A stretch of DNA of 63,187 bases, filler included, from Dugesia japonica (lineage: Eukaryota), in NCBI GenBank assembly GCA_001938525.1. It is 6 parts of 6 records of this genome, joined end to end, with 100 filler letters (N's around TTAATTAATTAA, not from the genome) between each part and the next. Parts side by side here need not be neighbours in the genome. Positions count along the whole stretch, not along the records: positions 1 to 12,870 come from MQRL01493719.1; positions 12,971 to 22,836 come from MQRL01601460.1; positions 22,937 to 31,621 come from MQRL01611931.1; positions 31,722 to 43,137 come from MQRL01633793.1; positions 43,238 to 53,699 come from MQRL01596601.1; 1 more part is not named here. One strand, 5' to 3'. The translations under genes were made by a program, and so were the position numbers. Positions 1-51,099 of the stretch are shown piece by piece (within the stretch, counting starts at the first letter, position 1; each line of letters begins with the position of its first letter). A model generated the notes under the pieces. It saw nothing but the letters and a program-made list of their open reading frames with translations. It was not told the origin of the DNA and ran no database searches.

Positions 1-1390
1 AACAGTATATTTGGATGCCAAGAAAGAAAAAACAAGGCTAAAATATATTAATAACATATAACAGAATGAAAACATTGTAGACAAAATTCGGAATGTATTT
101 TGTAAAATCTTCAGTAAAATCTTCAAAAAATAATTCAAACAATGCAAAACAAAGTGCGATAAGTAGAAAAAATCATTCAAAGAAACTATTTGGATAAGCT
201 TGATCGCGAATTGAAATTGATGATGGATTATTAGTCGTAGAAAGAAAAAATAAAAATTTGATAATAGTACCAACGAGCATAACCAACGAAATAATCGGAC
301 ATTCATGAAGAATTATGTCATTTAGGAATAAAGAAGATATTTTCATATTTAGAGAAAAATTATTACTGGCCTGCAATAATGGAGACTATTAAAAATAACT
401 TGAATAAATGTGTGATTTGTAAAAATGAAAAAAATTGATCAAGGAACAAAGAAAGAGCTGCTGTTACCTAGAAAGTTTCAAGATATTTTGGAGCAAACTT
501 TGGTAAATATTGCTCATATGGAAACAGTGGCATTAGGAAAAAGTATATGGTGGTGATTATCGATCGGTTTAGCAAACTGGTAAGTATATCAGAGTTATCA
601 AAGATAAATGAAGAAAGAATTTTCGGAATAATTTTGAACAAATGGATATATCGTTTTGGCAAACCGAAAAGCATATTAACCGACAGAGGAAGAGTGTTTG
701 AGAGTAAATTCGTGTCAGAGACGTTAGCGTAGTTTAATATTAGACAAGAGTTCAGCTCTCCGTATCAACACCAATTGAATGGGCTGGTAGAAAGAATGAT
801 TCTTACGATAAGAGATATGATTACAACTTCACTTAAAGAAAATTGTAATGAGAAAAACTGAGATACATTACTTCCAAGAATTGAGTTCAGTAAAAAGGCT
901 GCTGTTAAAGAGTCGACAAAGTTGTCACCCTTTGAGATTATTTTTTGAAGGCGGATAAATTTGCATTCAAGGACAGAAAACATTTCTGAAAACAAAACAG
1001 CTAATCTAGAGATAATTAGAAAACATTTAAATGAAGCCGCTAATAAAATGGCAACTTTTGAAAATGAAAAGCGTGGACAGAAAATTTTCAAAGAGGAGGA
1101 GTGGGTTTTAGTTTGTGTAGAACCACACAAAAGAAAGAATAATGATTTTCAATAAGAAGGACCATATCAGATAATGAAGTTCATATCAGATAGGCAAGAA
1201 GAAATCCAATTTCTTCACAGTTCAAAGTACAGAAGAAAAGAATGGCTAAAGAAGTGGAAAGCATTTTGAAGAGAGATAGAGTTAGTTATAATGATTAACA
1301 ATTTGTTTTAATATTATTTAAAAATTGTGTAATTTTGAATTATAATAAATATTTTAATGAAGACTGATTTTAAAAGTAACTTAACTAATA
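1..1390 (+). mobile_element. Ty3/Gypsy 3' remnant: decayed integrase, PPT and short 3' LTR (~1281-1390)
   Basis: Integrase motifs KYMVVIIDRFSK, RFGKPKSILTDRGRVFES, SSPYQHQLNGLVER and EGPYQI, with stops; purine tract GAAGAGAGATAGAG ~1268-1280. Confidence 0.85.
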
Positions 1391-1444
1391 CAATAAACAA
1401 TTTTAGTAGAGAATCCAACGAACAATGAATTATTTGATTATTTC

Positions 1445-4400
1445 TATTGGTTTAATTTAAAATCTCACAACTCTCAATAAGTTTATATTTATTATCACAA
1501 GTTTCTTGATAAAAGTAAAAAAGATGGAGAAATGGTATTCAAAAAAATAATCTGAGAAATTTAATTCCAATTTACAGTAAAATATTTACAAAATATAGAT
1601 TTTAATTTTACGAAATATTTTTACTTTATATATATTTTTAATTATTTAAATTATTTAAAATAATTTTATACTTTTATAATTTGCCTAATGTAATGTATGC
1701 AAATTATTTAAATTAATTTGCATTTTAAAAAAGTATTTTATTTTAAAAATCTGTTTTTACTTTTTTACAATAATATTTGAATGTTTTAAAAAATAAATTT
1801 TAATAAAATATAATTTAATATATACCAAATTAAAAAATTTCCCAGATATTTTGAAATATATGAATCACTCTTACATCCCGCTCTTTAAATTTTTTTTTAA
1901 TCTTTTCCACATTTCTTTCCATCCTCTTGCCTTCTGAACTCTTCAGCAGGTATCGTCTTTCAGGAACCTGTTTTATCATTTTGTATGGACCTGTATATCT
2001 TTCTTTGTTTTTTGATCTGCTTTTTACCTTAATTAACACCTTGTCTCAAACTTGAAAATGTCTCTTTGTTGGTGTCAACGTTTCAGATTCTTCATTCTTT
2101 TCTTCATTATTGAACCATCTTTCTCTATGTATCTTCTTTCTGAATATCACTTCTGCTGGACTTATCTCCAAGTTCTTCTGGCTTATTGTATTTAGTGTAT
2201 GTTCGATTTCTGGTATTAATTCTGCAAAAGTTCTATTCTTTTTATCTTTTAATATTGCATTGATGTAATCTCTGACGTTCTACTATTTCGTTTGTATTAT
2301 GATGATATTTACTTGAAAAGCAAATTGTTATATTCATTGAAGCTGTCATCTCTTTAAAGGTTTTTGATTCGATAATCTTCCTACAATCTACATGTATCTC
2401 TTTTGGAGCAACAAATCTTAGTATCCATTTATCTATAATCATTTTCTATATTGACTCCTCATCTTGTTAAACTAGGGTTGTTAAGCATATGTATCTTCTA
2501 AAAATTTTTATTATGGCACATATATATCTTTTTCCTCCTAAAGTTTCATGGAATGGCCCGCATATCAAAATAAATACACTCAAATGGTTCATTAGCCTTT
2601 AACTTTATAGTTTCATCCTTTGTTCTAACGGTTGTTACTTTATTCATGTGGTACATTCTGCATTCTTTAATTACATTTGACACAGTTTCTCTCAAATCTT
2701 CCATATCTTATACATTTTTTAAATAATTTATCACCTTTTCTGTGCCGGCGTGCACTAATATGTTATGCATTTCTTTAGCCATTTGAAGTTTCTTTACTGA
2801 CAGGATCCATATTTTGCCATCTTTTGTTTTAACTATATCTTCCATTAATTGAAACCTTTTATATGTTCCATTTTTATATTATTCTTTATCTGTTCCATTT
2901 CTTCTACTTTATTTTGCCATTTTTATNNNNNNNNNNNNNNNNNNNNNNNNNNNNNNNNNNNNNNNNNNNNNNNNNNNNNNNNNNNNNNNNNNNNNNNNNN
3001 NNNNNNNNNNNNNNNNNNNNNNNNNNNNNNNNNNNNNNNNNNNNNNNNNNNNNCCTTGTCTAAATTCCAATACAATATTTAGGCTACTAAGAAAATTTAT
3101 CTAAGTCTGAAATTACGGAGTAATAGGCTGGTTTTTCTTTTCATAAATGCTATCGTTTTGTAATCTGTTCTCACAAAAAATCTTTTTCCATTCAAATAAT
3201 GTTTAAAATGGTTACTGTTAGATAAGATTGGAGTATTCATCGAATCACCAATATTAAAATTTAACTCCATAGGAAAACCTATTCAATAAAAAAACTATTT
3301 GTTTATTCAAACAAATTAAAATCGATGTTTTAATTGGTGATCGCTTTTCAAGTTTTTTTATAAAATATTTAAGGTTATTTAAAATTTTCATTCAAACTTA
3401 AAACAAATTTGTACTTGATTATTTTCAAACGTAATTTAAAATTTAACAAAATACACATTAGTTATTTAAATTTTTCATCTACAATCAAAAGTGTTTTAAA
3501 TGAAAGATTTTAAAAAGAAACAATCACCAACCACAAAAAAATTTCAACTCGCTTTTTAAAACATACTCACAGTTACAAAAATAGTATATAGCCAATAATT
3601 CTTTATTTGTTATACACTATCATTTTTCATGGGCTGACATTGCATGTGACCCATATCTGAACCTTTTTAATCTATTTTCAATAAATGACATTTTTTTGGA
3701 TTAGTTCTCAATCCTGATTCTTGAATTCTTTTGAAAACTTGGTCTAAATTTCTAATGTGCTGCTCTACATTTTCTGAAAATATCAATATATCATTCATGT
3801 ATACCATCGTTCTTTTCAATCTTCCTAACACGTTTGTCATTAATTCTTGAAACGTACCAGATGCTGCAGCTATACTAAAAGGCATTTTGTGAAACAATAC
3901 TGTCCATTGTACATAGTAAATGCTGTTTTCAATTGTGAATCTTTATATAATGGAACTTGATAATATGCATTACAAAAATAAACATTTCTAAAATATCTTG
4001 CACCACTCAAATTGTCTAGTATTTTCTCTACATTAGACATAAAAAATGCCTGTCTTTCTGTGATTGCATTCAGTTTTTTAAAATCTAGACATAATCTAAT
4101 GTATTCTCTTTCTTTTTTCAAAACACATATTAACGGGGTGTCCCGTTGCAAATTACACTTTCTAATAATGCCATTGTCAAAGAAATTCTTGATAGCTTTA
4201 TCTATCTTGTTCTCTAAATGCATTGGCTGTCTCCATGATTTGGTATTTATTGGTTCACNATTTTGATTATTTGATGTTTTGCCATTGTTGTTCTGCTGAT
4301 ATACTAGTTGTCTGCCATTAATATTCCTTGATAAATCATTATAACTTTCTTTAAATTCTCATTTGGCTTGTTAGTCAATATTTACATTGCTCTCTGTACT

Positions 4401-6338
4401 CTCTCTTCATACGTTGTATTGCATCCATACTTTGTTTATATATTACAAAGATAAATTTCATTGTCCTCACATTTAGTCTCTCACAGCAGTGGGAATCCAA
4501 ACTTTTTCTGTAATTCTATTCCTCCAATTAGATCTGAGTGTATCTGTTTCACCACAATGAATTTAACTGCTTCGCTTTTATTCTCAAATTTTATTTCTAC
4601 CTTTATCGTACCTACTATTTTGAGCGGACTATTATTGGCACATCTTAACTTGTCTTCACTTTTTAATATATTGACTTTTTCCAATCTTTTCAAAATACTC
4701 AAACTGATCACATTAACTCTTGTTCCAGTGTCTAACAGGGAATCAACTTTCACGCTTGTATTTCAACCGTTGTACTTGGTCTACCTTGCATCTTGTCATA
4801 ACTTATCTCTTGTCGTTTAATCTTTTCTATGGTCAAAATTCCACTGTCGTATTCTTCATTTATATCATTGATCATCTCTGGTTGGTCTCTAATTAATTCT
4901 TTCTTTACAAACTGGTAAACCTTTTCTTTTACATTATTGTACTTATCTACTCTTTTTTTCCTTTCTTTTTTTTATATAATTATTTATACTACTTTTAATA
5001 TAATTAACAATAATGCAGTTGTTTCGGATACTTAATGCAATGCTCTGACAATCTTGACTTTGGTCAAAGCTTAGCCATTTGGGTATTCATCTTGATAAAT
5101 ATTTGATTCTTCATTACAATAGTAGCCTTTGTCTTCTCTACATGTACCTTAATCGAATTAATGTGTATTTTTTCTTATGCATTTATTCGTATTGTTCGAA
5201 TAATATCTTTGTTTGACATTTACGAATTCTTTTCTGGCCTGTTCATTTTTATTCTGATAACTAAACTGTCTGTTCAAATAATTTTTAACGGTCTTCTGTG
5301 TAATGACCTTTCTTGTTGCATCTTGAGCAACTAACTTTGGTAAAGTCTCTTTGAAAGTGTTGTTCAGATTCACAAGCATAACACTTTGTTTTCTTTCTTG
5401 ACAATTTCTGCTTACATGACCTATTTTGTTACATGTCCAACAAGTTATTTTTTGTCTTTCGTTGTTTCTGTTCTGTTGAATTCCTTCATTTTGACTCTTT
5501 TTGAAGTTTGTTTGTTCTGTACTTCGGCGAACTGCATCTCGTATTTACGAACTACATTTATTTCTTCAGTTTTTACTACGTCTTTTATATCTTCCCACTA
5601 TTTTATTGCTTTAAATACATCTACTTTTTCTATTTTTTCTGATGTGATTTTATGTTTAATCTTTCTGTCATTGCAACTATTCCATATTAACTTCTTTGTT
5701 AAGTCCTCTTTGTTCTATTAATGAGCAATTAACTTTTCTACCAATTCTTCAATCTTCTTTTTATAGATATTTATATGCTCTCCATTCCTTCAATAATTTA
5801 GTGCTTTTTCCATATCTTAAATCATTGTTGATAGCCTAAAGAAAGTCTTTCTGAATCTTTCTTCAAATCCCAATGCTTCATCTTCATTTTCATAGATTTC
5901 GTGCAGTTCTTTATCTATGAAAGCAACTACAAACAAACTCCTTTGGTCTTTCTTTGTTCCTATTATATCAAAATATTTTGTTGTCTTCAAAATAAATCTT
6001 TCGACATCATTGCACAATTTAAAAGTTCCAGGGTTCATGGCTTCTTTTAGCGAATCCACTGATACGTTGGTCACCATATTAGTTAAATTCAAAATCTCAC
6101 CAGTCTCCATAAATTTGTATTTATTATTACAAGAGTTTTTGATTAAAATAAAATAATGATGAAGAATAATTCTTAGTATTCAAACAAATAATCTGAGAAA
6201 TTTTTCAATAAAATATTTTAAAAATATCGATTTTATTTTTTACGAAATATTTTACTTTACATAATAATTTCATAAAATATTTTAAAAAAATCAATGAATA
6301 TTTTAATCAGATATTTAAATCAATGAATAATTCTTACA
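1445..6338 (-). mobile_element. Decayed Ty3/Gypsy element (gag-PR-RT-RH-INT) with diverged LTRs ~1445-1873 and ~6077-6338
   Basis: Gag ORF 5817-6110; protease LLDTGTRVNVI; RT RLCLDFKKLN, MPFSIAAASGTFQ, VYMNDILI; RNase H LLAIYYFCNHF; integrase YTGPY. PBS TGGTGACCAACG at 6076-6065; PPT next to 1873. 1445-1630 resembles 6077-6260. No TSD seen and a gap lies inside, so it may be chimeric. Confidence 0.85.
3216..3571 (-). mobile_element. Solo LTR inserted in the RNase H region of the host Gypsy element
   Basis: TG...CA ends; perfect 5-bp TSD GTTAC (3211-3215 and 3572-3576); similar to LTR 10322-10738; removing it restores LLAIYYFCNHFKHYL. Confidence 0.9.
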
Positions 6339-7514
6339 GAGTAGAAATAAAAAGAACCCAAAACAACCAACGAGCATGACTGGACCACCAATAATAATGG
6401 GCAATAATTTAGACAGCGAATACTATCCGAATCTGGCAACAATAGATAATTATATTAGTATAACCTCACAGCGAAAAGACGAAATTCCAGAACAGCTGTA
6501 CTGAAGAATGTTTAATTTAGCGTGTAATGCACATTAGAATCACAAAATGAATAGAAAAAAGTGAAAGATTTTTCCAGAAATAATAAATCTATATAAAGAG
6601 GCAATATTAGAGAAAACCGTGGGAGCTTATTTTTGAGTTGAAATTAGTTATCCAATTATAGATGGTAATTTGGTGACAACGATGCCGACCAAAGAGATTG
6701 AGGGATTTTAAAACAACAATTATCGGCAAGTTACAAGATATTCTCAGTGAATTACTTCTATAACACGGAGTGGAACGATCTAGAATCATATGTGAATATA
6801 TGGTGATTGAACGAGAATAACTAAATAAATGAAATAAATATTTACCTGAATTCAGGTTGAGACCTAGAGAGATGATATAATTAACGTTAGAATTCGATGA
6901 TTGGTAACCAAAAAACTGTATGAAGCAGTCAATTAGCCGAATCAGTGCTAAATTGAGAAAAGTGTATCAAAAGGAAAAAGACAAAATGGATTATTTGAAA
7001 TTAATTCATAATGATCAAATGGGATTAACAGCAACTGTGTAAAATATAGTATGTGTGAAATAAGCCCCATCATACTATCTATAATTTATCAATATTCATT
7101 GACAATAAGTTAAGCAATTTACTTTTCGTTTATATTATTTAAAATCAATTAATCATACACACATATACATAGAAATAAAAACATTTTCATGACATCATGG
7201 GGTCAAAGGTTCTACAAAAGGTAATTAATTATACATGTTAGGTAGATCTTCAATTGTTAATTCATTTTGTAAATCAGAATTCATATTGTTAGACATTTTT
7301 TATTTTACTACTACAAATTATATTTCATAAGATAAATAATTATGAAATACAAGTATTTAAATATTAATATTTGGATATCTCAATTTCTATTGGGTGAGAT
7401 TAATAATTAATAATTATTTCCTTATAATACATATGACATAATCAAAAGCATTACAAATCATGTACATACATAAATAGTTATATATAAACCAAGTCAATAT
7501 AATTTATTTCATTA

Positions 7515-10320: not shown

Positions 10321-10321
10321 A

Positions 10322-11178
10322 TGTTAGTTGAGTTTGGAAAACTCATTGTATCATCAATATCAAAATTCGAATTCATTACAACGCTTTATTAAAATCAAAA
10401 CTATAACCAATAATTTTTGTTAATCAAACAAATTAAAATTCTGTCTTTTAATTGTTTATCTTTTTCACAAAATTAAAAATTGAAACTTTTTATTTATTAA
10501 AAGTAATTTAATTTAATTCCCCTAAAAACATTTTATTTATTTACATAATTTTCATTTAAAAATTGAAAATTTTATTTATAAAAAGTAATTTAATTCAATA
10601 ATTTCAATTTATCCTTAAACCAAATATATTTTTTTAATTTTTCATCAATAATTTAAATCTCTATTTTAAACAAATGATTTTAAAACTAAGATCACCAATC
10701 ACACAAAAACTTCAACCTGTTTTTCAAAACACCTCACATCCCTTTTTTAAGAATTTTTTTGATCTTCTCTACGTTTCTTTTGAGAATTTTTCGGTTTGTA
10801 TACTTAAGGATGTAATGTCTATAATGAATCTTCCTCTTGATCTTATAGGGTCCTTCATAACGATCTTGGTTCTTGTTTCTTATTTCAGCTTTCACTAAGA
10901 CCTCATCGCCGATCTCGAATTGTCTTTGGGTTAATATATCTTTCTCTTGTTCTTTGTGCACCCTTTGAGTATTAGTTTCATACAATTTTTCTCTGCTGAT
11001 TCTCTTCCCAAATACGATTTCAGCAGAGATTTTCCCGATAGTTTTCAGTTTTGTAGCGTTTAAGGTAAATTCTATCTTAGGAAATACATCCGCCCAATCT
11101 GAGGTTTTCCTTTCTTTAAGCGTTGCATTAATCATGTCTCTCAAAGTTCTAAACTGCCTCTCAATTTGTCCATTTGTG
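10322..11178 (-). mobile_element. Ty3/Gypsy 3' end: integrase C-terminus, PPT, 3' LTR 10322-10738
   Basis: ORF 10734-11144 (IEFTLNAT...SAEIVFG...RYEGPY); PPT AAAAAAGGGA abutting the LTR start TGTGAGG. Confidence 0.85.
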
Positions 11179-12970: not shown

Positions 12971-13649
12971 AAGCCTCTTCTAATATTTGTTTGGAATCTA
13001 CAGCCAATCAACTTAAATATATATTACTAGATACAAAATTAATGGTTAGACGAGTACGAGTTAAATCATCAGTACTGGTTGCTCATCAGTTGAGTCTAAA
13101 AAGCAAAATGCTGATTATCCAATAAGAACCAAGGAAGTCGTTGCATTTGCAATTAGTAAAGATAGTTCATCGTTTTATAAGAAACAAATCTTTGGTGATC
13201 GTCGATTACCTAGCNTTATTTTGGTTACATTTCAAAATGGTGAACTATATAACGGTAGTTATAAAACCTTAAGTTCAACATTTCCAAATCTAGAAGCTGT
13301 TTTTGTTTCCTGGATGAAAAACACTGCTTACCGAGACATATTTACTCAGGATTTTACAAACGATAATTATGCTACAACATATATACAATCTATAGTAAGA
13401 AATATGGGTTATTTGGATAAAAATATGAATTGTGGAATAACACTTAGTGATTTTAAGGATAATTATCCCTTGTTCACATTTGTATTTGCTCCAGATGCAG
13501 ATATAAATCAAAGTCAATTACCTCAACAAGGAAATTTGAGATTGGTTATCAAGTTTGCCAAAGCTTTAACTACACCGGCATATGTAATAATTTATGGAGT
13601 ATTTGAAAAGGAGATTAATATTCAAGAAAACGGAACAGTATTGGTGTAA
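12971..13649 (+). pseudogene. Polinton/Maverick major capsid protein (double jelly-roll, PY), C-terminal part
   Basis: KLMVRRVRVKSSVLVAH..YPI..RLPSxILVTF..YNGSY..GITLSDFKDNYPLFTFVFAPD..GNLRLVIKFAKAL..VIIYGVFEKEINI, typical of one class of Polinton MCP; frameshift near 13105. Confidence 0.88.
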
Positions 13650-17990: not shown

Positions 17991-18660
17991 ATGCAATCAT
18001 TGTCAAGAATTTATCTAAAATTAATATCAAGTTGTTGTAAAGGACAAAACCGAACNNNNNNNNNNNNNNNNNNNNNNNNNNNNNNNNNNNNNNNNNNNNN
18101 NNNNNNNNNNNNNNNNNNNNNNNNNNNNNNNNGGCGTGTTAAAAAAGTGGTTATCGAACAAGTTAGCGTTCAGTCTGAACAAGCGAATGTTGAAAAGATT
18201 CCAAACAAGACCGTATAAAACCTTGAGTATTAATGATTTATGGCAAAGGTATTTGATGGAAATGATACATTATTCAAGAATTAATAAAGGATAAAAGTAT
18301 ATTTTGACATGTGTTGATGTGTTTAATAGATTTTTAATAGTTTTACCGATAAAATCAAAATCTGCTGATGAGCTGAAAGCTGCAATCAAAAATTCTTTAA
18401 ACAAGGACATCTATGAATTGAAAAAGTACTTTGTACATACGGGTAATAAAACCTGGATACATATATTACCGAAAGTATTCAATAGTTATAATTATACAAG
18501 TCACAGAGGATTAAATGGAGCAAGACCCATTGAATTACCATTTGATAATTCAATGAAATTATGGCTTTTCAGGCAACAACCAAAAGTAGTCAAGAAACCA
18601 AAATATAAAGTTGGTAATCATTTTAGAATCTCAAAGATATCAGCTTCACCATTCATCAAG
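17991..18660 (+). pseudogene. Polinton/Maverick retroviral-like integrase, decayed with internal deletion
   Basis: VLKKWLSNKLAFSLNK..RF..INDLWQ, YSRINKG*KYILTCVDVFNRF..LPIKSKS, TWIHILPKVFNSYNYTSHRGL, PKYKVGNHFRISK. The central catalytic segment is missing; the start at 17991 lies across a gap and is uncertain. Confidence 0.85.
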
Positions 18661-21164
18661 AATGCAATTAATTCATTATATAAAATAAAAAAATCGAATT
18701 AAAATTAATAATTAAGATATAAGAAAAAAAATATAAAAAATAATTATTAGATGAAAATTAAAATTAGATTAAATTTTGGCTTAGAAATGAAAACAGAAAT
18801 TTAATTAATAAATTAAGAAGAAAATAAAAATAAATGATATATTTATTAAATAAAATAAAACATACAGATTAAAATGATTTATTATAAAAAAGAAATTAAA
18901 TTTATAGGAAAATATAAGAAAATGAAGACAAAAATAGTGGTTAAGAAGATTATAATCACGAAAACGTCGTGGATTTCAAATATTCAAGTCCAAAAATTAT
19001 AGCTAGACCAGAGAAGATGCTAGAAAGATTTTAAAATTAACCAATTGGATTCCAGTTTTGGGATTCCAAAATTTTTACCAATAAAAAAAACTGAGGTGAC
19101 ATAAAATGAAAAATCCAACCAATAAAAACATTAGAAAAATTAAACGATGCCCATTAGTCAATAAAAAGAAAGAGGGCGTACGAGAAAATAATATAAATAC
19201 AATTGTTATTTTCAGCAGAAATCTTTCTAATTTTGAATCAAAGACAAATTCGATCAAGTTAATCAAATTACTCATAAACGGTAATTAATTGGCAAGTTTT
19301 GTTTAACAGCGGTTTACGACTCAAAAAATATGAAATACGGAAGACCCCAAGTGTATAATTAATCACCATGGTTACGAGAGAGAGTGAAAGTAGGCAACGT
19401 GTAGGTGTGCAATGGAATGAAAACATCGATTACACTAGTAGGAATATGGATACTGCGTAGGTGGGTAATCAATTTAGGCAATGAAGAGGGTAAAATTCTA
19501 GAATAGATGACTAATTGGACACAAAAATCAATTCAAATGAATCGCCATAGAAACTTAATTGGCTATGTGCTTGCTCCGGATCGATTTACAGCTCATGTTA
19601 GTTTTGTTCACTTTATGTTACTTTTAATTTGATTTATAATCAATGAAATATTTGANAATCACAATACAATTTCATTAAATGAAGTCTTTTTGTAAATAGT
19701 TTAACCATTGGTGCAATGAAAAAAATGTTAAAATTTGTTGGTAGATAATATTGATTGATTAAAGTTCTTTTGTAATTATTCCTTAAAGAACTAATTAAGT
19801 AAAACTTTCTAGAATAATTCATGTAGAAATAATTAATTAATTATTTCAATTTATAATAATTCATAATGATTTCTAATAATGAAATAATGATATATTTCCC
19901 TGCTTAAACAAAACATGATTAGTAACCTTTGGTTAGAAAAAAAGATAATAACTAATAAAGTTATAATTAATGAGGATTAAGTAGGAGTCAAAGAATTAAG
20001 GAAGTATGCCATAAAATATCAGAAAGTATGAACTCAAAAAGAATACGAACATACACTCAAACCAAGGGTTACGAGTCACCGGCTTCATTCTGAAAATCTA
20101 AATCGGGCGTCTAGGTTAACTCTTCGCGCAATTCTACAAGATCAGACCACCATAGACGGAAATTACATTTAAATTCCCTAGATAAAACCTCAACATTATT
20201 ATCCGATACATAACTAAAATCACTATTATTATAATAACCGCAAATAGGATATTTAATATTAATAATTAATAAATTAGGGTTACAAAATCTGTCTTTTAAC
20301 CTTATCAGTATGATCATTTACCATTTTCAACACTATAGATATCTTTGAAGAGTTTCAGTATCATTAGTTGAATTATGATTAAAGTCTAATTAGGACTGTT
20401 TTCTAGCATCTTAACTTTATCCTCAATCTTTAATCATAACGGTTTACTTCATTATTAAACAATGGGACTTTGACTCCTTGTTCACTTTAATGCTAGTAAT
20501 TATAGATTATCTCATGTGTCAAAAAACAATAATGGTCATTCAGTAATCATTATAATAGCGATTATTGAGTAACTATGCCATTAAAATAAGTCCACTACAC
20601 GCCGATTGAAAATAAATAAATCATCAATAATTAATCTATATTTCTGAAAATGATTGAAAACACACCACAAAATTCGCAATTTTTATAGTGGTTTGTTAAG
20701 AGGCCTATCCGAGCATTCGGGCTGAAATGCAACTAAATAGGGACAACTATCAACATACACCAATTGAGCACACACTTGTCAGTGACTTTATAAAAAGATC
20801 GCGANNNNNNNNNNNNNNNNNNNNNNNNNNNNNNNNNNNNNNNNNNNNNNNNNNNNNNNNNNNNNNNNNNNNNNNNNNNNNNNNNNNNNNNNNNNNNNNN
20901 NNNNNNNNNNNNNNNNNNNNNNNNNNNNNNNNNNNNNNNAAAAATAATACAATAAAATTACATAAATATCTAAAACATTTTTCACAATAAATTAATCACA
21001 CAAAACAATTATTATTTATAATATTTAAAAATTAATTTTTTCTTACAACAAACAAAATTATTTAATTAAAAAATAAAAATTTAAATTAAATAAAGTTCTT
21101 TGGAAAAAAATAAAATATTTTACTTAAAGCAAGAAAGTTATGAACTTTGATAATCTTCAATAAT

Positions 21165-25330: not shown

Positions 25331-28300
25331 TTATTTTATTATCAGAATCACCTTTAATATCCAGTTATCTTTTAATACACGAGTTATTGACTCTTCATCT
25401 TGTTTGCTGTTGCTGTCAAGGATATATTTATTATTCTGATCGATAATAACCACGATACATTTCTTTTTTTGGAACTTTTCTGGCCATGGTCCTACTATAT
25501 TAATATATATTCTCTCAAACGGCCTTGCCAACTCGGATTTTATAGTTACTTCTTTAGTTTTAGTTGTTTCCACCTTCACACGCTGACATGCTAAGCATCT
25601 GTCCACGATTTCCTTTACACTTTCCAACAATCTAGTCATGCCATAATGTTTTCTAATATTTTTGGCAACTTTTTCTGTTCCTGCGTATGCTTTCAACTGA
25701 TGCATTTCTCTGATCATATCCGATTTTCTTTTTGCTAGTATCAAAATCTTTCCGTTTTGTGTTAATATCTGAACATCTATTCATTGGAATCTCTCTTCTT
25801 TACCATCTTTGATCTGTTCTCATATTAGTCGTATCTCTTCATTATTTCTTTGCCATTTTGATTTCTCCGTTATTGTATTCAGTCATCTCGATTTTAACTT
25901 GCCCCTATAGGATCTTCGTGTAATATCATGGATTGTACATATGTGCCACATGCCTGCCTTGAGAGAAAATCCACATTGCCATGTTTGTCACCTTTCCGAT
26001 ACTGTAAATCAAAGTCTAATCCAATTAGGTAATTGATCCAATTTTGAAACTGTGCGTTATAGGTTTTTTCGTAGTTAACATAAACGTAATTACTTTATGG
26101 TCTGTTCGTAGAGTAAATCTTCGCCCATATAAGTACTGACTGAAATGATTGCAAAAATAGACTATCACTAACAGCTCCTTTCTTGTTATACAATACCTCA
26201 ATTCGTGATTATTCATTGCGTGTGATCCATACGCTATTACTTTTTCTTGTCATTGTTGTCAATTTGTGATAATACGGCACCAATAGTATTGTAGCTTGCA
26301 TCTGTATCCAGTATGAATTCTTTTCTGACATCCGGAAACACTAAAATTGGTGGCTTTGTTCCACTTCTTTCATATCTTTGAATGATTGTTCGCAGCTCTC
26401 TGTCCATGCTAATTTCTTTTTATTTACACTGCACAGTTTTTCTAGTTCTCTAGCTTTCTTTGTGTTATCCTTTATGAATCTTCTGTAATAACAACATATT
26501 CCCAAGGAACTTTTCAATCCTTTCTTGCATTTCAGTCTTTCGTATGTCTGTATTGCAACCAATTTTGCTGGATCGGTCTAAACTCCTTTATCATTTATGA
26601 TTTGTCCCAAAAATTTAATCTCTTTTCTTAGCAATTGACATTTTGACGAATTCAAACGTAGTCCTGCTTGATGTATTTTACTAAATACTTTATCCAGTGT
26701 TTTAGAATGGTCTTCCACGTTTTTTGAATATATTAGAATATCGTCTCAATACACCGTTGTTTCCTTTGTTGTACCTAAAACCTTTGTCATGTGTTCCTGG
26801 AGTTTCTCAGGCCTGCAGCTATGGCAAACGGTATTCTATTGAAACAGTATTGACGTGACTTTGTTGAAAAGGCTGTTTTATCTTTTGACTTTTCTTCTAG
26901 TTCAACTTGATAGTAAGCATTACCTAAATCTAATGAGCTGAAGAATTTGGACCCACCTAATCCATGTGGAATCTCCAGTACATTTGGCATTGGAAATGTT
27001 TGTCTTTCCGTAATAACGTTTAGCTGTCGAAAATCCAGACAGAGATGAACATCTTTTTTTTCTTTTTTCCAGATACATATCAACGGAATGTTCCATGTTG
27101 AATTGCACTTTCGCATAATTCCATTTTCAAAAAAATTACGTACTCCTTTGTTTTATCTTATTCTCTAGGTTCAAAGGTGTTCTCCATGGTTTAACATTTA
27201 TAGGTCCTTCTTTTGTCACTATTTTATGCTTCACCAGTTTTGTGCATCCTATGTCCCATTTATCTGCCATAAAGATGTTTGAATGTTTTCTTATCAACTC
27301 CTTGATCGTTTCATTTTCCAATGTATTCATCTCACTCAAAGCCTTTTGGCACGTTTCTTCATCTGTCATAATCCTTCCAAAATGCGGATCGATATTGCAA
27401 ATCCGATCTTGATTATCTCTTTCTGCTGTATCTATCCAATGTATTTCTAGTCCAAAACTGGTCTGCAACTCAATGCCACCAATTATGCTAGAGATCACCT
27501 TTTCCACAACTATGAAATTAACCCATCTATTAATATTGCCGATCCTCACTTTCACCTCAAATCTCCCCTTGGTACTTAATAAACTGTCGTTAGCGCACCG
27601 TAGTCTGTCCTTGGTTGTTAGTAACGGGATATCCTTGAATTTGTTAAACACATCCATACCCATCACACTAATTCTTGCTCCGTTATTCAGTAGTCATTCA
27701 AACTCCATGTTTTGGATCTTTATCGCAATACGTGGTCTACCCTGCATTATATCACATATAATCACATCTTTTCCCTATTCTTCCACTGTTTCGATTGTTG
27801 GTTCTACTGATGATTCTCCCTTAATTACTGATATCTCTTTCTTTAAAAAATTATAAACGNGTTCCTTGACATCATCCTCTATATTATTTATATGACTACA
27901 TTTACTACAACTATCGATATTTTGGGGATCACCCATTAGATTTTGAGTTCTAAAGCTTCTACCATCTCCCCTGTTGGTAGAGCCTCTCCGTTTGAGTTTC
28001 TCCTTGATTTATATACATTTGCATCATATCTGTTGTTACCATATCTAACGTCTTCATAGCTGTCGTCCTCATATTTCTTGTTTCATCATTTTTCACTGCA
28101 TTGATGTTAACATGCCTACCCGGAAATGGGGGTTTTTACCTCGCATTTCTTATATTCCAAAGAATACTCATTTCATCTCTTGTACTTTGTGAAACAGTCT
28201 TTGGTTTTATGACCGTTTTTGTTGCATTTTGCGCACTTTATCTTGTTGCACTGTCTTCTTATATGCCATACATTTCCACATGCGTAGCATGTAGGAGGAT

Positions 28301-42068: not shown

Positions 42069-43105
42069 ATGTATAAATTAGACCTTCCCGTCGATCAAAA
42101 AGAAGCCGCTATTATAAATCATCGGAGGTCACGGGAAGAACAACGTCAAAGTAGGATTTTTAATAGTAAAACAAGACAAATCGGTGTAATATTTTCTTAT
42201 TTGTATTATTTTAAAAATAAAACTACTGACTAGATTGATAAACAAGCTCTTGATCAACAGATTAAAGATAAAAAGGAAAGAGAATGTATAGAAAGAAATG
42301 TTGAGTTGGCTTATGGTAATGAATTACTTACAAAATATTATTNNNNNNNNNNNNNNNNNNNNNNNNNNNNNNNNNNNNNNNNNNNNNNNNNNNNNNNNNN
42401 NNNNNNNNNNNNNNNNNNNNNNNNNNNNNNGAATTAAATAAAATTTTAAATGAATTTCGGGCATTCCATCAACAACCGGAAACTAGAAGAGAATGGGATC
42501 TTTATGATCCGGATGCATTGAAAAAAGATAAACCCGCACGAGTTTGTGATGATGATCCCAGATGTGGAATTTCAAGCATGCAAAAATTTGATGGAGAAGA
42601 TCTAAACAACAAAGCACGAACGAAATATCAGAAAGAACAAATGAATGATTGGAATGAACGACAAAAAGCAGATAAAGAAAGAGCAGAACAAGCTCAAAAA
42701 GAAGCAGATAGGTTTCAATTAAATTTAAAAGAATAGATTAATTAATTAATTAATATCTTAAGACTTTATGATTTAAAAAGACGTGAAATGGATGAACGCG
42801 CTTGTGATTTAGCTGCGGCAGAGGAAGCATGTCGTCGTGCAATGAATATTGCTAATAGTCAATATAATGTTGCTTTAATTAACGAAATGAATGAAAGGGA
42901 AAGATTAAAAAAACAACAAGAGACCGATGATACTTTAACTGCCATAGCAAACGCACTTTATAGCGATTTATTAACCGAAAATCCAGCTCAAGCTACTTCT
43001 TCATTCGGGCCTGGAAGAGTCATTCCGGATCGATTTAAAGGAATGACTCCAGAACAGCTTAATGAAATATATAAACAGCAAGAAGATCAAATGAAAGATA
43101 ATAAA
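42069..43105 (+). CDS. RIB43A-like coiled-coil ciliary microtubule inner protein (RIBC family), 5' exons 42069-42185, 42234-42315, (gap)-42711, 42763-43105; 3' end missing
   Basis: MYKLDLPVD..RIFNSKTRQIG/IDKQALDQQI; RREWDLYDPDALKKDKPARVCDDDPRCGISSMQKFDGEDL; DLLTENPAQA..RVIPDRFKGMTPEQL; canonical short introns. Confidence 0.93.
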
Positions 43106-43809
43106 GTAGATTGATATAATAATAATAATAATAATAANNNNNNNNNNNNNNNNNNNNNNNNNNNNNNNNNNNNNNNNNNNNTTAATTAATTAANNNNNNN
43201 NNNNNNNNNNNNNNNNNNNNNNNNNNNNNNNNNNNNNTAGAAATAAATGTTATCAACAGAAGAAAGTGTTTTTAATGTAGGGTATGTAGGCCCAACCCCT
43301 AATATATACAAATAATATATTGTCCAAAAAATTAATTGTCATAAATAGTCAAATAATTGTCAGAAAATAAATTAGTCAATTATGGATGAATGGATTGAAC
43401 TGTTTGGTTTTCTTGTTGGATTGTTGAATTATTGGATATTGAATTGATTGATTATCAAATGTTGAATAAATCAAATATTGATTGATTCAGGTGTTGTCTG
43501 TTTGTGTTTTGTGTGTGTTTGTATTATGTATTGTTACATGTTTTAATTGTTGCTTTCCTCAACACTATATAAATCAGGTACAGTGATTCTGAATCTAAAT
43601 AACTATTGCAATGCGTTTTTTCGATATTGTATTTACAAAAGCAAGTATCCATATTTTTAATTATAAACAAAACCTTTATTTTGATCGATTCTATTTAAAA
43701 ATGCAACAAAAAAGACTTTGAATTGATTTGGAAAGTAACGTTTTCAGTTACAATTATTTGCAACTTCGAGCCTACTCAATGTTTAGATTACATATGATTT
43801 CATAATGCA

Positions 43810-46800
43810 TGTTAGTTACAGATAAATTTTCTGAAAAGTCCATTAAATTAAATAAAATTTTATTTATGAAACGAAATTTCAAATCTTTAAATCTTATTTT
43901 TAAATAGTGAATATTTAAACCACGTTTTCAAATATTTAAAAAAATTCTTGAAATCTTTAAAAATTTTCTTTTACATAATTTTAAAGGCTTTTCTACGTTT
44001 CTTTTTTTAGCACTTTTCCATTTGCATTTCGTATACGATATCTTCTCTCATATACCTTCTCTGTGATCTTGTATGGGCCAGTGTATTTTTCATTGTCTTT
44101 TGGTCTAGTATCTACTTTTATCAATACTTCATCTCCCACTTGGATTTGTCTTTTTGTAGGTGTTTCCTCCATCGACTCTTTGTCATCTCTTTGGTTGTCA
44201 AACCATTGTTCTCTGTGAATTCTCCTACCGAATATTAATTCTGCTGTTGATATCCCCAATGGCTTTTGCCTTGTTGCATTCATCATGTATTCGATCTCCG
44301 ATCTCCTGTTTCACCAATCCTTTCTTCTATCTTTTTCTGCAGCAGCGTTAATACAGTCTCTGATTAGGTTGAATTTTCTCTCTATAATCCCGTTTGCATT
44401 GTAATGGTATGGACTTGAAAAATGTACTTCTATACTCATCGATCTCATTAGATTCTAGAAATCTATTGATTCAAATGTTTTACCAATGTTTACGTGAATT
44501 CTTTTGGTGCTCCAAATTTCAGTGTCCATTTTTCCATGATCACTTTTTAATCGTCTCATCATCTAGCTTGCTGATTGCCGCTAGGCATATATATCGACTG
44601 TATTGGTCTATTATTCCACATTTATATCCTCGTTTGTTCACAGTCTCTCAAAAAGGTTCACATGTTTCCAAATATATCTTTTTTAATGGAAAATTTGCGC
44701 TTAATTTTACTGCTGTCTCTTTTGTTGCCACAGTATTAACTTTGTTCTTTTGGTACGCTTCACACTGTCTTATCACTTCTGTGATTGTCTTCTTCAGTTT
44801 TTTCATGTCGCATTTGCTGATTATGTAGCTGATCATTTTCTCTGTTCCTGAATGTATTAACAATGTATGTATCTCTTTGATCATTGATATTCTTTTTCCT
44901 CTTGAAATCCAAATTTTTTCATCACTTGTTTTCACTATATTACTTTCGACTCTATACTTTGAATCCTTTCCTTCTTGAAAATCTCCTTTGATTAGTTTGA
45001 TTTCCTCTATTCTCTCTTTCCATTTACATCTCTCTATCTTTGTCATTTGATTTATTTGTCTTGTTTTCATCTTTTTCATCTTTGGATCTTAATGTTGCAT
45101 TTTTCATTGAGTGCACGTTCCGCATTTCATTCTTGAGAGCATATCTGCGTTTTTGAGAGACTGTGAACAAACGAGGATATCTGCATTCGCGTGTTTTTTG
45201 CCTTGTTTATATATTAGTTCTATGTCTAAGTTGCTAAGGTAATTCATCCATGTCTGGAACTGAAGTTTTATCGGTTTGTTAGTCTTTTTCATTAATACGA
45301 TGGTTTTGTGATCTGTTGTCGTTATGAATATTTTCCAAATAAATAATGTTTAAAGTGGTTGCAGAAGTAGTAGATTGCTAGTAATTCCTTCCGTGTGATA
45401 CAATAACCCCTTCTCATGTGATATCATTGCATGTGAGCCGTAAGCAATAACTTTTTCTCTTTTATTATCATCATTTTGTGATAGTACCGCTGCTATTGCG
45501 TCGACGCTGGCGTAAGTATCTAAAAAAATGTCTTCTTTATATCACGGAATCCCAGAATAGGTGCTTCCATCAGTGCTTGTTTCATTTCTGCGAAAGCTTT
45601 CTCACATTCATTTGACCATATTAGCTTCGTGCTGTTGCTTCCACATAATTCTTCTAGGGCTCTTGATTTCTTTGAATAATTCTTGATGAAACTCCTGAAA
45701 TAATTGCATATTCCGAGGAAGCTTTTTAGGCTCTTTACGCATTTGGATTTCTCAAAATTCTTGATAGCTTCGATTTTCATTGGGTCGGTTCAAATTCCTT
45801 GTTTCTTTATTATGTGACCAAGGAATTTCACTTCTTCGCGTAATAGGTTATATTTTTATAGATTTACTAGCAGCTCTGCCTTTTGAATCCGCCTTAATAC
45901 CTGACGCTGAGTTATATAATACTCTTTTAGTCCTTCTGAGAATATCATTATGTCATCTATATACACTATTGCTCCATCTAGACCGTCAAATACTTTCGTC
46001 ATTAAATCTTGGAATGTTCTAGGGGCTGCTGTGCCATTTATGTCAAAAATGCTATTTTCTCTTGTGACATTTCTTTAAGGGTACTTGGTAATACGCGTTT
46101 CCGAAGTCTATGGTACTGAAATATTTATTCCCATACAAATTGTCTAACATTTTCTCCACGTTTAGCATTGGGAAGGCCTATCGTTCTGTAATTGCGTTCA
46201 GTTTCCTGAAATTCAAGCAAAGTCTCCCATCTTTTCTTTCTTTCTTCCAGACACATATCAGTGGTGTGTTCCACTGTGAATTACATTTTGTTATAATATT
46301 GGCGTCCTCTAAATTTTCTATGGTTGTATCTATTTTTTCTTCTAGATTCATAGATTGTCTCATTACCCTTTGTCACTATCTTGTGTTTCGCTAACATTCG
46401 ACATCCCAGTTATCTGGCATGAATACTCCTTGATTTTGTACTATTACCTTTTCTAGTTTTTCGTCTCGTTTTTTCATCAAAATTCTTAAACTTCTCTGTT
46501 TTCTTTCAGCATTTTCAATTTTCCGGCCAAACCTTGAGTTCGGTTAACTTCTGAGAAACGTTTTTATGTCATGCCTTTTTTACTGCATTGGTATAACTCT
46601 CCACCGTATTTATATTATCTGTTTTTTTCAGGACCTCCTTTACTTCATCATTTGTTTTATCGTCTCAAATATCTCTTCCTAGTTAACTAGTTTGCCTCCT
46701 TTAATCTTTATTTGCATCCTTTTATCGTGGCAACTATTGAATATTAATTCTTTTGTCATCTCTTCTTTATCTAGTTTGTGTGCAAAGATTTAATCGACCA

Positions 46801-47302
46801 ATGCTAAAATCTTTTTTTTGTACACATAAACGTGTTTATCGGTTTTCTTATATTTTAAAGCTTCCTCCAAGTCTTGTATAAGAGTATTCTTTTTTGTGGA
46901 AGGCTTTCCTCAGTTAGTCCTCAAAATCTAATAATTCATCCTGGCATTCATATGCTTCTCTTAATTCACGATCAATTAAGCCAACCACCAAGAGGTTTTC
47001 ATCCTTTTTCTTTACACCAATACATTCCAAGTATTTGGTGCAACCATTGATAAACTGTTCAATATCGTCACCATGCCGGTAAATTCCTGGGTGTAGTGCT
47101 TCTCAAATGAGGTCCATTGAATCGTTGGTCACCATGTTAGTTACAGATGAACTTTCTGAAAACTCCATTAAATTCAATAACATTTTATTTATGAAACGAA
47201 ATTTCAAATCTTCAAATCTTATTTTTAAATTCTGAATATTTAAACAACGTTTTCAAATATTTTAAAAAATTCTTGATATCTTTTATAACATTTTCTTTTA
47301 CA
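43810..47302 (-). mobile_element. Decayed Ty3/Gypsy element with both LTRs (43810-43975, 47135-47302)
   Basis: Similar ~167-bp TG..CA LTRs; PBS TGGTGACCAACG at 47134-47123; gag, RT (RLCLNFRKLN, FLGICNYFR), RH and INT (YTGPY) remnants; protease deleted; no TSD seen. Confidence 0.9.
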
Positions 47303-48321: not shown

Positions 48322-48549
48322 CAGTGGTTATTAACCTTTTAGGGTTGGTGGAGCACATTTAATTACATGAAACTTTCCCGGGGCATCAGAACTAATTAAT
48401 ATTAATTCCAGTAATTAATATTGATTTTAATATATCAAATCTTTTATTTATTCAAATTAAATAATAATTATATACATAAAATAATTATAATTGTATTTTT
48501 TGGCGGAGCACCTGAGATAAGGTTGCGGAGCATCAGTTAAAAATCACCG
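48322..48549. mobile_element. hAT (Charlie-like) MITE
   Basis: TIRs CAGTGGTTATTAAC / GTTAAAAATCACCG; perfect 8-bp TSD ATATAAAC on both sides. Confidence 0.88.
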
Positions 48550-48608
48550 ATATAAACGTATAGTGCGTACTCGTATAAATGAGTGATATAGGTGTTCCTT
48601 TTTGTAAT

Positions 48609-51099
48609 TATTAAGAAAATTTTAAAAATTTAAAAATAATTAAAAAAATTTCAACCAATAGTATTTGTTGAAATTAAGTTAAATGATTTTTTAGTTTCTA
48701 TTTCAGAAAAATTTTTAAAATTTAGATAGTTGTGATTTTGAAATAAAATGTTTGAAATTAATTGCTCTAATTTTAGAAATAAATTATCAATTGAAGAATT
48801 ACTTAACATGGTGGCAACGGTAAATACCGATTCTATTACAGAGAGGTTATTGTCGAATGTGTTCTGTAGAGGAGAAACCTGTAAATCATACAGTGAATAG
48901 TCATGTAGATTAAAGAAAAGAAAAACAAAATATTGAATGTTGGCTATGCCATATGATTGGTCATATCAAAGCAAATGTCCAACAAAGAAAGTAGTAGAAT
49001 GTTAGACTTCTCGTAAAAAAAGGACATATAAGTCGAGTTTGCCCAGATAAAAAAACCAAAAGATTTTTTGGTTGTGGAAAGGTGGGACACGTTAGAAGGT
49101 TATGTCAAAAGGTAAGATGTAAGAGATTTGGAAATGATAAATATAGGGCAGAATAGTGTTACACAAATTTAAAATTAAAAGAACAACCAAGAAACTTGTA
49201 AATAATGGAGGGCCAAGAAATGGATATAACCAAATTTATGCAATTGCAGACGCAGAAGTTAATTCAAACGATGAATATGAGGAAGTATATGAAAGTGATT
49301 CTGAAAGGCAGTACCCAAAAGGCAGGGCGCAACCAGTAGAGGAGTTGGTCTGAGCCATCCATTGCTAAATGAAGTGGTCAAAAAGTTGGATGATATTGGA
49401 AAAGTTTCAGAAAAAGTATACAGATTCTTAAAGAGGGAAAATTTTGGGATGATTGAAAATAGAATGGGTTGGAACNNNNNNNNNNNNNNNNNNNNNNNNN
49501 NNNNNNNNNNNNNNNNNNNNNNNNNNNNNNNNNNNNNNNNNNNNNNNNNNNNNNNNNNNNNNNNNNNNNNNNNNNNNNNNNNNNNNNNNNNNNNNNNNNN
49601 NNNNNNNNNNNNNNNNNNNNNNNNNNNNNNNNNNNNNGATGAAAGATTGCGTTGTGCAAATAATAGTACACTTGAAATTGTTGGGAAAGTTAGAACCAGA
49701 GTGATAATTGACGAAGTTTGCAAAAAGATTACGTCCTTAGTTGTTGAAAGAGTAACACCAGATTTGATAGGAGGAATGTTATCAGGAATTGACTTTTTAG
49801 TCAAAAAAGTCAATTCCTGATGAAGACAAGGTCGAAATATCAAATTGTTATCCAATATCAATAATTAAAACCTAAATTTTGATCAAAGCTTTTATATTAA
49901 ATGAATTCTATAAAACGATCCATGGTTAAGTCCAACAATTATTCTCGTAATAATTGCAATTGTAAAACAATTAAACATAATCAAAAAAATTCAAATTTCG
50001 GAAGACAAAATACGTGGAACAATAGAAGAAATACATAAATTATTATGTCATGCAGGAGTTGAAAATGTGTACGAATAGATGAGAAACAAGTACATTGCCA
50101 AGAATTCGTGGAGCGAAATATACAGAAGATAGTTCGTAGTTGTGAAATTTGTCAGAATACCAGAGTAGTGACAACAGCAACTAAAAAGAAGACAAGGTGA
50201 CTAGAAGGTACCAATTTGTTTGAAGTCATATTTACACATATATGTGGACAATTTCGGGAATCTGTGGACGTAATAAATATATACTCGGAATAATAGACAA
50301 GTTCAGTAAATATCTGGTTCTTATAGCACTCCCTAGACAAGACGAGGAAACAATACGAAAAGCTATTTTTGAGAAGTGGATTTTGAGATTTGGATGTCTA
50401 AAAGAAATAAGGCTAGATTGTTGAAGAGTCTTTGAATCCAGAGTTATGAGAGAGTTAGCACAGACATTAATCTGTGCTTTTTGAGTCCTTATCATCACAA
50501 TGCAAATGAAAGAATTTAGAGACAGTTCAGGACAATTCGAGATTTAATCTCTCTCACTTTGTGAGAGAAAGACAACTGATTGGGGAGATCTTTTACCGGA
50601 AATAGAATTTACAATGAACGCAACAAAGCAAAAGACAACTGGAAAGAGCCCGTTTGAGATTATTTTTGGAAAGAAAATTAGCAGAAAAAAGTTATACGAG
50701 TCAGAATTTTAAGGAAGCACTAAGGGAAACATTTCAGAATTGACTACAAATGGAGAATTCAACGTAGGAGATTATGTTCTCATCAAGATAAAAGCAAGAA
50801 ATAAAAGCCAAGACAGATTTGAAGGCCCTTTTCGAATAATTGAGAAAATTCACGAAAGAAGGTATGCAGTACAAGGAGAAAATGGAAAGAGATTGGAGAG
50901 AAATGTGAAAAACTTAGAAAGTTCTTAAAAAGGGGGATATAAAGAAAATTTAAAAAATCAAAAATAATTAAAAATTTTCAACCAATGGAAATTTTTGAAA
51001 TTAAGTTAAATAATTTTGTAGTTTCTATTTCAGAAGAATTTATAATATTTTTTAGTTGTGATTTTGAAAATAAATTATCAACTAAAAAATTACTTTAGA
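48609..51099 (+). mobile_element. Internally deleted Ty3/Gypsy element (LTRs ~48609-48808 and ~50938-51099; gag, PR, INT; RT/RH lost)
   Basis: PBS TGGTGGCAACGGT (48809-48821, tRNA-Leu-like); several knuckle remnants; RLRCANNSTLEIVG; KYILGIIDKFSKY; RFEGPF; PPT AAAAAGGGGGA. Confidence 0.85.

Follow-up and report, generated by a model that had tools for sequence, protein, structure and literature searches.

Background

The Ty1/copia elements (Pseudoviridae) are a different superfamily from Ty3/Gypsy and have integrase ahead of reverse transcriptase (RT). In the part of PMC5454406 that was available, the GAG AUG of Ty1 falls within the 5' LTR part of the RNA, with the 5' UTR at nt 1-53 and the primer-binding site (PBS) at nt 95-104. 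The PBS is coding there too, so a preliminary description of the planarian DNA studied here was apt in comparing its elements with Ty1. This also limits the surprise, since a coding PBS is a principle already known from Ty1. The AUG-to-PBS distance is similar as well (41 nt in Ty1, same part of that source). It is 3n+2 in Ty1, as computed here from those numbers, whereas it is 3n+1 in the planarian lineage, so no in-frame ATG arises at the junction of Ty1. Its primer differs too, being the initiator Met tRNA rather than Arg or Leu. Tca5 of Candida albicans is another of the closest known systems, with differences: the available part of PMC4139406 gives a copia-type element with a single ORF and an ATG deep in a 685-bp LTR.

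The ICTV profile of the Metaviridae describes their LTRs as non-coding (PMC7879559). Canonical members such as Ty3 and the errantiviruses have TG..CA LTRs, a tRNA PBS, a polypurine tract (PPT), a gag with capsid and CCHC knuckles, and pol in the order PR-RT-RH-INT (PMC7879559). Our lineage is like them in this, with a capsid fold that is putative, but it has ORFs over both LTR ends and no env. Among errantivirus rows with LTR coordinates from Lepidoptera and Diptera, 57/57 have a gap of some 400 nt or more from the end of the LTR to the start of gag (PMC13524379 supplement); these distances are inferred from the 3000-nt flank stated in that paper, and the count leaves out four Collembola rows whose LTR ends lie past position 3000, whose flank length is uncertain and which could be exceptions. 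Microsporidian Ty3/gypsy groups have a single polyprotein according to the available part of PMC4202319, whereas gag and pol here lie in separate, overlapping frames, and a sequence look-up with the relative P0061 gave no match. The available part of PMC12801592 does not mention start codons. The literature searched describes no Ty3/Gypsy clade with such anatomy; Repbase Reports, GyDB and most subscription papers lay outside that search and may record it.

Classification of the elements

The window is the whole stretch of DNA analysed, 63,187 nt from Dugesia japonica with the filler between its joined records included. Its features are listed in Table 1.

Table 1. LTR, PBS and gag features in the window. 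ATGs marked (p) are those of the preliminary description.
Feature	Position	Strand	Observation
E1 3' LTR	1276..1390, start approximate	+	ATG 1357 (p), 11 codons open to LTR end
E2 3' LTR	1445..1875	-	after PPT; no ATG, stop in frame
E3 solo LTR	3216..3571	-	5-bp TSD, sits in E2 pol; ATG 3270 (p), 18 codons
E2 gag	5038..6110	-	stops and frameshifts; begins within 5' LTR; tblastn to P0001 residues 1-366; zf-CCHC
E2 PBS	6068..6076	-	9-nt pairing, tRNA-Arg(UCG/UCU)-type 3' end
E2 5' LTR	6077..6338	-	ATG 6110 (p); junction ATG 6077-6075
Solo LTR, E7/E9 group	7236..7426	-	5-bp TSD; 20 open codons
E4 3' LTR	10322..10738	-	after PPT; ATG 10376 (p), 18 codons; E3's family
E5 gag, decayed	27942..28985	-	in-frame ATG gone, junction unreadable
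LTR	~30217-30306		no ATG
E6 3' LTR	43810..43975	-	ATG 43843 (p), 11 codons
E6 gag, N-terminal half	46655..47168	-	begins in LTR; stop at codon 22, frameshift near 46890
E6 PBS	47126..47134	-	Arg-type
E6 5' LTR	47135..47302	-	ATG 47168 (p); junction ATG 47135-47133
E7 5' LTR	48603..48808	+	ATG 48748 (p), 20 codons; junction ATG 48808-48810
E7 PBS	48809..48820	+	Leu(AAG/UAG)-type, 11/12 pairs
E7 3' LTR	50938..51100	+	ATG segment missing
E9 3' LTR, truncated	58225..58397	+	ATG 58350, open as far as break

On sequence grounds we classify these elements as Metaviridae, in a variant with coding LTR ends. They have direct LTRs with TG...CA-type termini, a target-site duplication (TSD), a PBS complementary to a tRNA 3' end, and a PPT before the 3' LTR (none is visible at that of E6). 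Pol runs PR-RT-RH-INT, judging from Pfam positions in E5 and from domain sets. Residues 228-957 of P0061 are colinear with Ty3 Gag-Pol, and Ty3 is the best PDB match (E 9e-99). Gag carries 2-4 CCHC motifs in 8/8 families. Its retroviral-type capsid fold is putative: Atlas features give Retrotrans_gag at 0.93 with 129/256 shared, and the top Foldseek matches are the dArc1, PNMA2, Copia and Ty3 capsids, all weak (E > 0.07), with none at E <= 0.001. The LTRs are not non-coding: in 7/8 families the gag frame opens in the 5' LTR, and in 12/13 pol reaches its stop within the 3' LTR. With the gag frame opening in the 5' LTR and pol running through the PPT into the 3' LTR, the internal region has no UTRs. 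No env ORF was found after integrase, as an Errantivirus would have, and there is no room for one because pol ends in or beside the 3' LTR. Integrase is not upstream of RT, as it would be in the Pseudoviridae.

Reading frames at the LTR ends

The preliminary description held that LTR copies in the window carry an ATG whose frame is open to the LTR end, and all seven of its peptides translate as it gave them. The open frame is real in the window copies. There are two further cases that it lacked, the solo LTR of the E7/E9 group and the truncated E9 LTR. It also lacked three counter-examples: the E2 3' LTR, the E7 3' LTR (no ATG within the last 100 nt) and the LTR near 30217. The decayed version that it listed near 28985 has a stop and no in-frame ATG. 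The TN common to the peptide ends is simply the terminal inverted repeat.

We set the LTR ends without reference to reading frame, from TSDs, RNA read breaks and paired LTRs. Both solo LTRs with TSDs (2/2) have the 5-bp repeat at each end; E2 and E6 have no matching TSD. RNA read alignment stops precisely at 47135 with mixed flanks beyond (loose ends, agreement 0.6-0.67), and paired LTRs define the ends of E6 and of the metagenome elements L005 and L007. The end of the E1 3' LTR was inferred from its terminal motif, its partner being absent from the window.

A stop-free in-frame ATG is found at 8/11 window LTR ends; at background motif sites the figure is 139/861 (16%), giving a binomial P of 5e-5. 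One can imagine that this is chance in AT-rich DNA helped by selective listing in the preliminary description. The three ATG-less ends were indeed left unlisted, and the window copies are interrelated: they fall into about five families, the LTRs at 3216 and 10322 are 76% alike, and the two E6 LTRs are 92% alike. However, with one copy per family the ATG is present in 5/6 against 0.95 expected (P = 5e-4), and the unbiased RT-motif set and the gag proteins described below give 7/8 and 25/35. The background, per-family and RT-motif counts refute chance, and we consider it almost certainly wrong.

A second in-frame ATG, made of the last A of the LTR and the TG of the PBS, had also been claimed, and it stands at 3/3 window junctions with a PBS. 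Its context has A at -3 in 14/15 LTR ends and G at +4 in all. The upstream ATG has a purine at -3 in only 8/15 LTRs. E6 has one more in-frame ATG 5 codons before the listed one.

Relatives elsewhere

A scan for the RT motif, which is blind to gag, gave 21 metagenome loci, and 0 matches in viral contigs and 0 in prokaryote genomes. L008, L016 and L018 were removed as bacterial chance matches and 8 more because they had no LTR-gag junction. Merging L002/L003 and L011/L017 left 8 families with unbroken gag, in elements of about 4.5 kb with gag identity of 23-61%. The LTR-PBS spacer is absent and the junction ATG is in frame in 8/8. An LTR ATG stands 11-22 codons upstream of the junction in 7/8, against 1.9 expected (P = 2e-4); for L007 we took the first after AATAAA out of five in-frame ATGs. 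A search of viral and metagenome contigs with the gag alignments gave no matches. At the protein level 25/35 gag relatives open with M-x(4-18)-[N/Y/H]-M[AVST], and neither start pattern fits 5/35; these starts are gene-caller calls, biased to the longest ORF. The N-terminal half of E6 gag has 76-80% identity to the proteins P0003 and P0039. The architecture is thus lineage-wide, as had been proposed, and it is found with both Arg- and Leu-type primers.

The upstream ATG is not universal, and we reject it as such. L014 has an unbroken gag without it at the DNA level, and at the protein level the junction M is the start in P0012 and in 11/15 members of the P0041 cluster. In these three lineages the junction ATG seems to be the only start. 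L014 is the sister of L009, which has the upstream ATG, with gag 61% identical.

Primer-binding sites

One PBS type had been called Trp-like, but tRNA-Arg fits better. E2 and E6 pair over 9 nt with Arg (one G-U) versus 8 with Trp. We reject a Trp primer, as 5/8 intact relatives pair over 11 nt with tRNA-Arg(UCG/UCU); the range across the 8 metagenome families is 8-11 contiguous pairs. The Leu-like call for E7 is upheld by its pairing (Table 1), with the CCA tail added by inference to the published tRNA entry. All tRNA 3' ends used are those of other animals and may differ from the host's own; ARAGORN found 0 tRNAs in the window.

Position of the ATG within the LTR

The ATGs had been placed in U5. 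They are inside the LTR, but the U5 placement is only putative. In 8/12 families, against 1.3 expected, AATAAA precedes the ATG by no more than 30 nt, which puts the ATG at about the R/U5 border. A highly improbable alternative is a very short R with the cap downstream of the ATG; the ATG would then belong to U3, and the genomic RNA would never contain it. AATAAA begins 6-22 nt before the ATG in 11/15 LTRs, so the poly(A) site may follow the ATG as this requires. However, in L002, L009 and E3 AATAAA is 37-91 nt upstream, which would place the ATG in U5 and thus on the RNA, and there is no reason for a U3 ATG to keep an acidic in-frame peptide. Sense RNA depth, with the strand set from histone H2B, also argues against U3, being roughly level through gag, junction and ATG in two of three runs. 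In the third it falls by half, from 18 to 10, right at the ATG and upstream of it.

In two runs, 71 and 99 reads leave the LTR ORF and run on into PBS/gag-type sequence. Among the rows listed, relatives' reads on E6 have no indel at 46891-47173 but 9 rows with indels ahead of the ATG, and the E9 reads have 1-nt indels that are all upstream and none in the ORF. None of the RNA loose ends listed is poly(A)-tailed. Antisense RNA on E6 gag reaches up to about 3x sense and no read is at least 99% alike, so much of the RNA in the E6 region may be read-through from other loci and not LTR-driven.

Translation of gag

We argue that the window holds decayed copies from a compact Ty3/Gypsy lineage whose gag probably starts mainly at the LTR ATG, with the junction ATG probably a built-in second start. 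The gag frame would begin within the 5' LTR, 5-22 codons from its end, and continue across the attachment end for integrase and the PBS. The transcription start, we infer, lies ahead of the poly(A) site set by AATAAA, which would place the LTR ATG on the RNA. Scanning ribosomes would reach this ATG first and make a Gag with a short acidic, predicted-disordered arm before capsid helix 1. Those leaking past it would initiate at the junction ATG, where the LTR end would supply the -3 A for free and the complement of the tRNA CCA the +4 G. Lineages that lost the upstream ATG would have the junction start only. By analogy with Ty1, ribosomes would cross the PBS, so a single RNA could not be translated and primed simultaneously.

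The LTR ORFs are short and have diverged between families, and within a family the copies decay neutrally. The LTR-coded peptide is acidic beyond chance, exceeding nucleotide shuffles. D+E make up 19/96 of the LTR-coded codons in the window (5.9 expected) and 18/86 in the metagenome set (6.5 expected), with K+R at 4 in each (12.8 and 13.3 expected; p <= 0.0005 for both sets). Structure prediction gives residues 1-15 a pLDDT < 50 with helix 1 beginning at residue 15, so the arm is predicted to be disordered.

Another scenario is that the junction ATG is the sole real start, while the upstream ATG and frame persist for some reason at the RNA or DNA level (a poly(A) downstream element, structure) or are simply tolerated because they are in frame. 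The junction ATG is invariant in the 8 families with its favourable context, arm length varies and disorder is predicted, and lineages with the junction start alone exist. They are three separate tips, which makes the acidic arm dispensable. However, mere tolerance predicts about 16-24% presence, not 7/8, and D+E are up about threefold and K+R down about threefold beyond nucleotide shuffles. A ribosome scanning from an upstream cap also reaches the LTR ATG first, which is textbook knowledge. We consider a sole junction start improbable.

If both starts are used, the CCA end of the tRNA primer binds the second start codon itself, and primer loading would block the arm-less start. One could then propose an unnamed, widespread Metaviridae clade without internal UTRs and with a two-start switch, giving armed Gag from the LTR ATG and arm-less Gag from the junction ATG. 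The primer would tune the isoform ratio and the shift from translation to packaging. We hold this fuller proposal to be unlikely.

Consequences for annotation and host DNA

On the two-start reading of gag, a leaderless design like that of Ty1 would have arisen in a Gypsy lineage, with the added feature that the integration end and the primer site together spell a start codon in strong context. Three functions would be packed into about a dozen bases. Annotation software that takes LTRs to be non-coding would cut these Gags short. L009 and L014 would be a natural pair for studying arm function, and translation versus priming at one site.

Each solo LTR of this clade would leave a promoter, a poly(A) signal and a start codon in host DNA. 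The donation of a start codon had been suggested, and the frames do read into the flank. This goes on for only 3-39 codons in 5/5 window cases, and exaptation is not seen and is rejected for the window. At the ATG itself GC goes up in 15/15 LTRs.

The gag frame opens inside the LTR

A gag reading frame that opens within the LTR is a real, non-random and lineage-wide feature of these elements. The window is AT-rich eukaryotic DNA (20-35% GC) in which numerous decayed retroelements lie beside fragments of RIB43A and histone H2B. LTR ends were set independently of the reading frame, using PPTs, paired LTRs, the 5-bp TSDs that flank two solo LTRs, and RNA reads, which lose alignment at 47135 and pass into mixed flanks at the LTR end of element copy E6. 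An in-frame, stop-free ATG (the LTR ATG) lies 4-30 codons upstream of 8 of the 11 placeable ends, against 139 of 861 background sites that share the terminal motif (binomial P = 5e-5). With one copy per family the count is 5 of 6, where 0.95 is expected. The preliminary description listed seven U5-type peptides and all are present at their positions, with two further positives (the LTR at 7236-7426 and an ATG at 58350). Its list lacked the three negatives, however, which are the 3' LTRs of E2 and E7 and the LTR near 30217. The 'TN' common to the LTR-end peptides is the terminal inverted repeat. The LTR's last A plus the PBS TG does form an in-frame junction ATG, as had been claimed, in all three copies with a readable PBS.

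A scan for the clade's RT motif, made without regard to gag, hit 21 metagenome loci. Of these, 3 are bacterial chance matches, 8 lack the junction, and the 10 that have it fall into 8 families with 23-61% gag identity. Their units are ~4.1-4.9 kb, their LTRs measure 122-599 bp when complete, and none has a spacer between LTR and PBS. The junction ATG is in frame in 8/8 and opens 350-395 codons. Seven also have the upstream LTR ATG, whereas dinucleotide shuffles predict 1.9 (P = 2e-4); the exception, L014, has a sister (L009) that carries it. Chance would have to explain both this excess and the one in the window, which is hardly credible.

The E2 gag N-terminus as query retrieved P0001, an intact 367-aa gag with the same start anatomy, plus 31 representatives, and a profile search added further relatives. 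The final set is 35 proteins, with P0014, P0022 and P0043 excluded (repeat or knuckle-only matches) and cluster members uncounted. Going by gene-caller starts, at protein level, 25/35 begin M-x(4-18)-[N/Y/H]-M[AVST], 5 at a junction-type M and 5 at neither. Families and proteins together bear out the lineage-wide architecture proposed earlier.

Which ATG is used

We argue that the LTR ATG is probably the main start, which would give Gag an acidic N-terminal arm of 5-22 residues. The junction ATG would catch leaky scanning and may be sufficient by itself in some lineages. Gag isoforms could result, and some link to priming is conceivable. At the LTR ATG, just 2/15 LTR ends combine a -3 purine with +4 G, so there is room for leaky scanning; the junction ATG has -3 A in 14/15, and +4 G by construction.

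One can imagine translation from the junction ATG only. Junction-only anatomy does occur: L014 has no upstream ATG, and in the P0041 gag cluster 11/15 members begin with the junction M, while 0/15 begin upstream of it. Three junction-only rows in a 25-row gag tree require 3 changes. As a general account this is nevertheless unlikely, given the upstream ATGs of the families and the codons between the two starts. Leaving out the ATG and two terminal codons, D+E make up 18/86 codons in the metagenome set (6.5 expected) and K+R 4/86 (13.3 expected). The window gives 19/96 (5.9 expected) and 4/96 (12.8 expected) in a set that includes related copies; p <= 0.0005 in each case. GC in the LTR ORF exceeds that of the 60 nt upstream in 15/15 LTRs. 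RNA reads of E6 relatives list indels at position 46890, then none until a group of 9 rows at 47174-47219, which is upstream of the ATG. E9 reads have 1-nt indels upstream of the ATG and 3-nt insertions just before it. AlphaFold gives pLDDT < 50 for gag residues 1-15 and helix 1 from residue 15 (pTM 0.29, 13 sequences). The top-ranking structures in Foldseek are capsids of Arc, PNMA2, Copia and Ty3, none of them a significant hit.

Position of the ATG in the LTR

AATAAA occurs within 30 nt upstream of the LTR ATG in 8/12 families (1.3 expected), at distances of 6-91 nt overall. Poly(A) cleavage occurs 10-30 nt past this signal, which places the LTR ATG near the R/U5 border. A cap site downstream of the LTR ATG is very improbable. 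The cap has to lie ahead of the poly(A) site, so a U5 ATG is necessarily on the RNA. The RNA should also include an ATG in R, except where R is very short.

Histone H2B reads show that the libraries are strand-specific, the first mate being antisense to the RNA. On E6, sense depth is 12-23 over gag, the junction and the LTR ORF. It is 8-17 in the 40 nt that take in the ATG and its upstream flank, and apart from a halving in one run there is no sharp step. Two runs yield 71 and 99 loose-end reads that pass from the E9-type LTR ORF into PBS/gag-type sequence (strand not given). Antisense exceeds sense over E6 and every read derives from some other copy, so these data do not place the TSS. At 46860-47200 antisense poly(A)-selected RNA of E6 relatives is up to ~3x as deep as sense along gag; it tails off around 47180-47200, within the LTR, where antisense transcripts possibly end.

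The pol end and the frames

In 12/13 metagenome families pol ends 2-36 nt into the 3' LTR, which makes the PPT coding as well; in L007 the stop falls 13 nt before the LTR. Gag and pol of the 8 families occupy different frames that overlap, and L005 and L007 have a frameshifted pol. By eye, an X XXY YYZ heptamer lies in the gag frame ~50 nt ahead of the gag stop, at the opening of the pol frame, in 8/8 families with unbroken gag (L002, L005, L007, L009, L010, L011, L013, L014). It is a likely -1 ribosomal frameshift site, located within a conserved Gag C-terminal P-N-x-x-A-P motif. L002/L003 form a tandem of two 4480-bp units that have one LTR in common and show no difference over the 3.7-3.9 kb compared; this is either a tandem insertion or assembly of a circle.

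Primers and known elements

Pairing used tRNA 3' ends from one part (34) of the supplement of PMC13524379, which come from animals other than this host. On these the PBS pairs 11 nt with tRNA-Arg(UCG/UCU) in 5/8 families and 8-10 nt in the remaining ones. Two primer types, proposed earlier as Trp-like and Leu-like, still stand: E7 matches Leu at 11/12 pairs. 'Trp-like' is doubtful on this table, since E2 and E6 pair longer with Arg (9 nt) than with Trp (8 nt) and the families are Arg-type.

A gag start within the LTR is already known from Ty1, whose AUG follows a 53-nt UTR ahead of the PBS at nt 95 (PMC5454406). Our elements resemble Ty1 in this, and also Tca5 (PMC4139406); both of those are copia-type. 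Domain order and Ty3 similarity place our elements in the Metaviridae. ICTV describes Metaviridae LTRs as non-coding (PMC7879559), whereas here the gag frame mostly opens, and pol mostly stops, inside them. Errantivirus LTRs end ~400 nt or more before gag in two sampled table parts of PMC13524379, in all rows that give LTR coordinates (39/39 for Lepidoptera, out of 44 rows, and 18/18 for Diptera, out of 20), the distance being inferred from that paper's method and four uninterpretable Collembola rows left out. Microsporidian Ty3/gypsy groups are described as single-ORF in PMC4202319, unlike the two frames here. Our literature search, with Repbase and GyDB outside its scope, found this anatomy described for no Gypsy clade.

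Other features of the window

Remnants and other features by position
Feature	Position	Remark
LTR remnant, E2-like	53262-53430	3' end not placeable, outside the 11 ends counted
LTR remnant after second integrase end	11763 downward	3' end not placeable, outside the 11 ends counted
Truncated LTR, then 55-nt duplicated integrase piece and partial histone H2B gene	58395-58800	H2B gene on the minus strand
Host RIB43A gene exons, pointing to a ciliated eukaryote	42080-43110	
Decayed ORFs, presumably Polinton/Maverick-like (by eye)	13065-13649, 18140-18700, 31720-32200, 34440-36340	one with a phospholipase A2-like domain

The solo LTR at 3216-3571 (E3) lies in frame within the E2 RNase H region, and its ATG reads 39 codons into the old pol, probably by chance.
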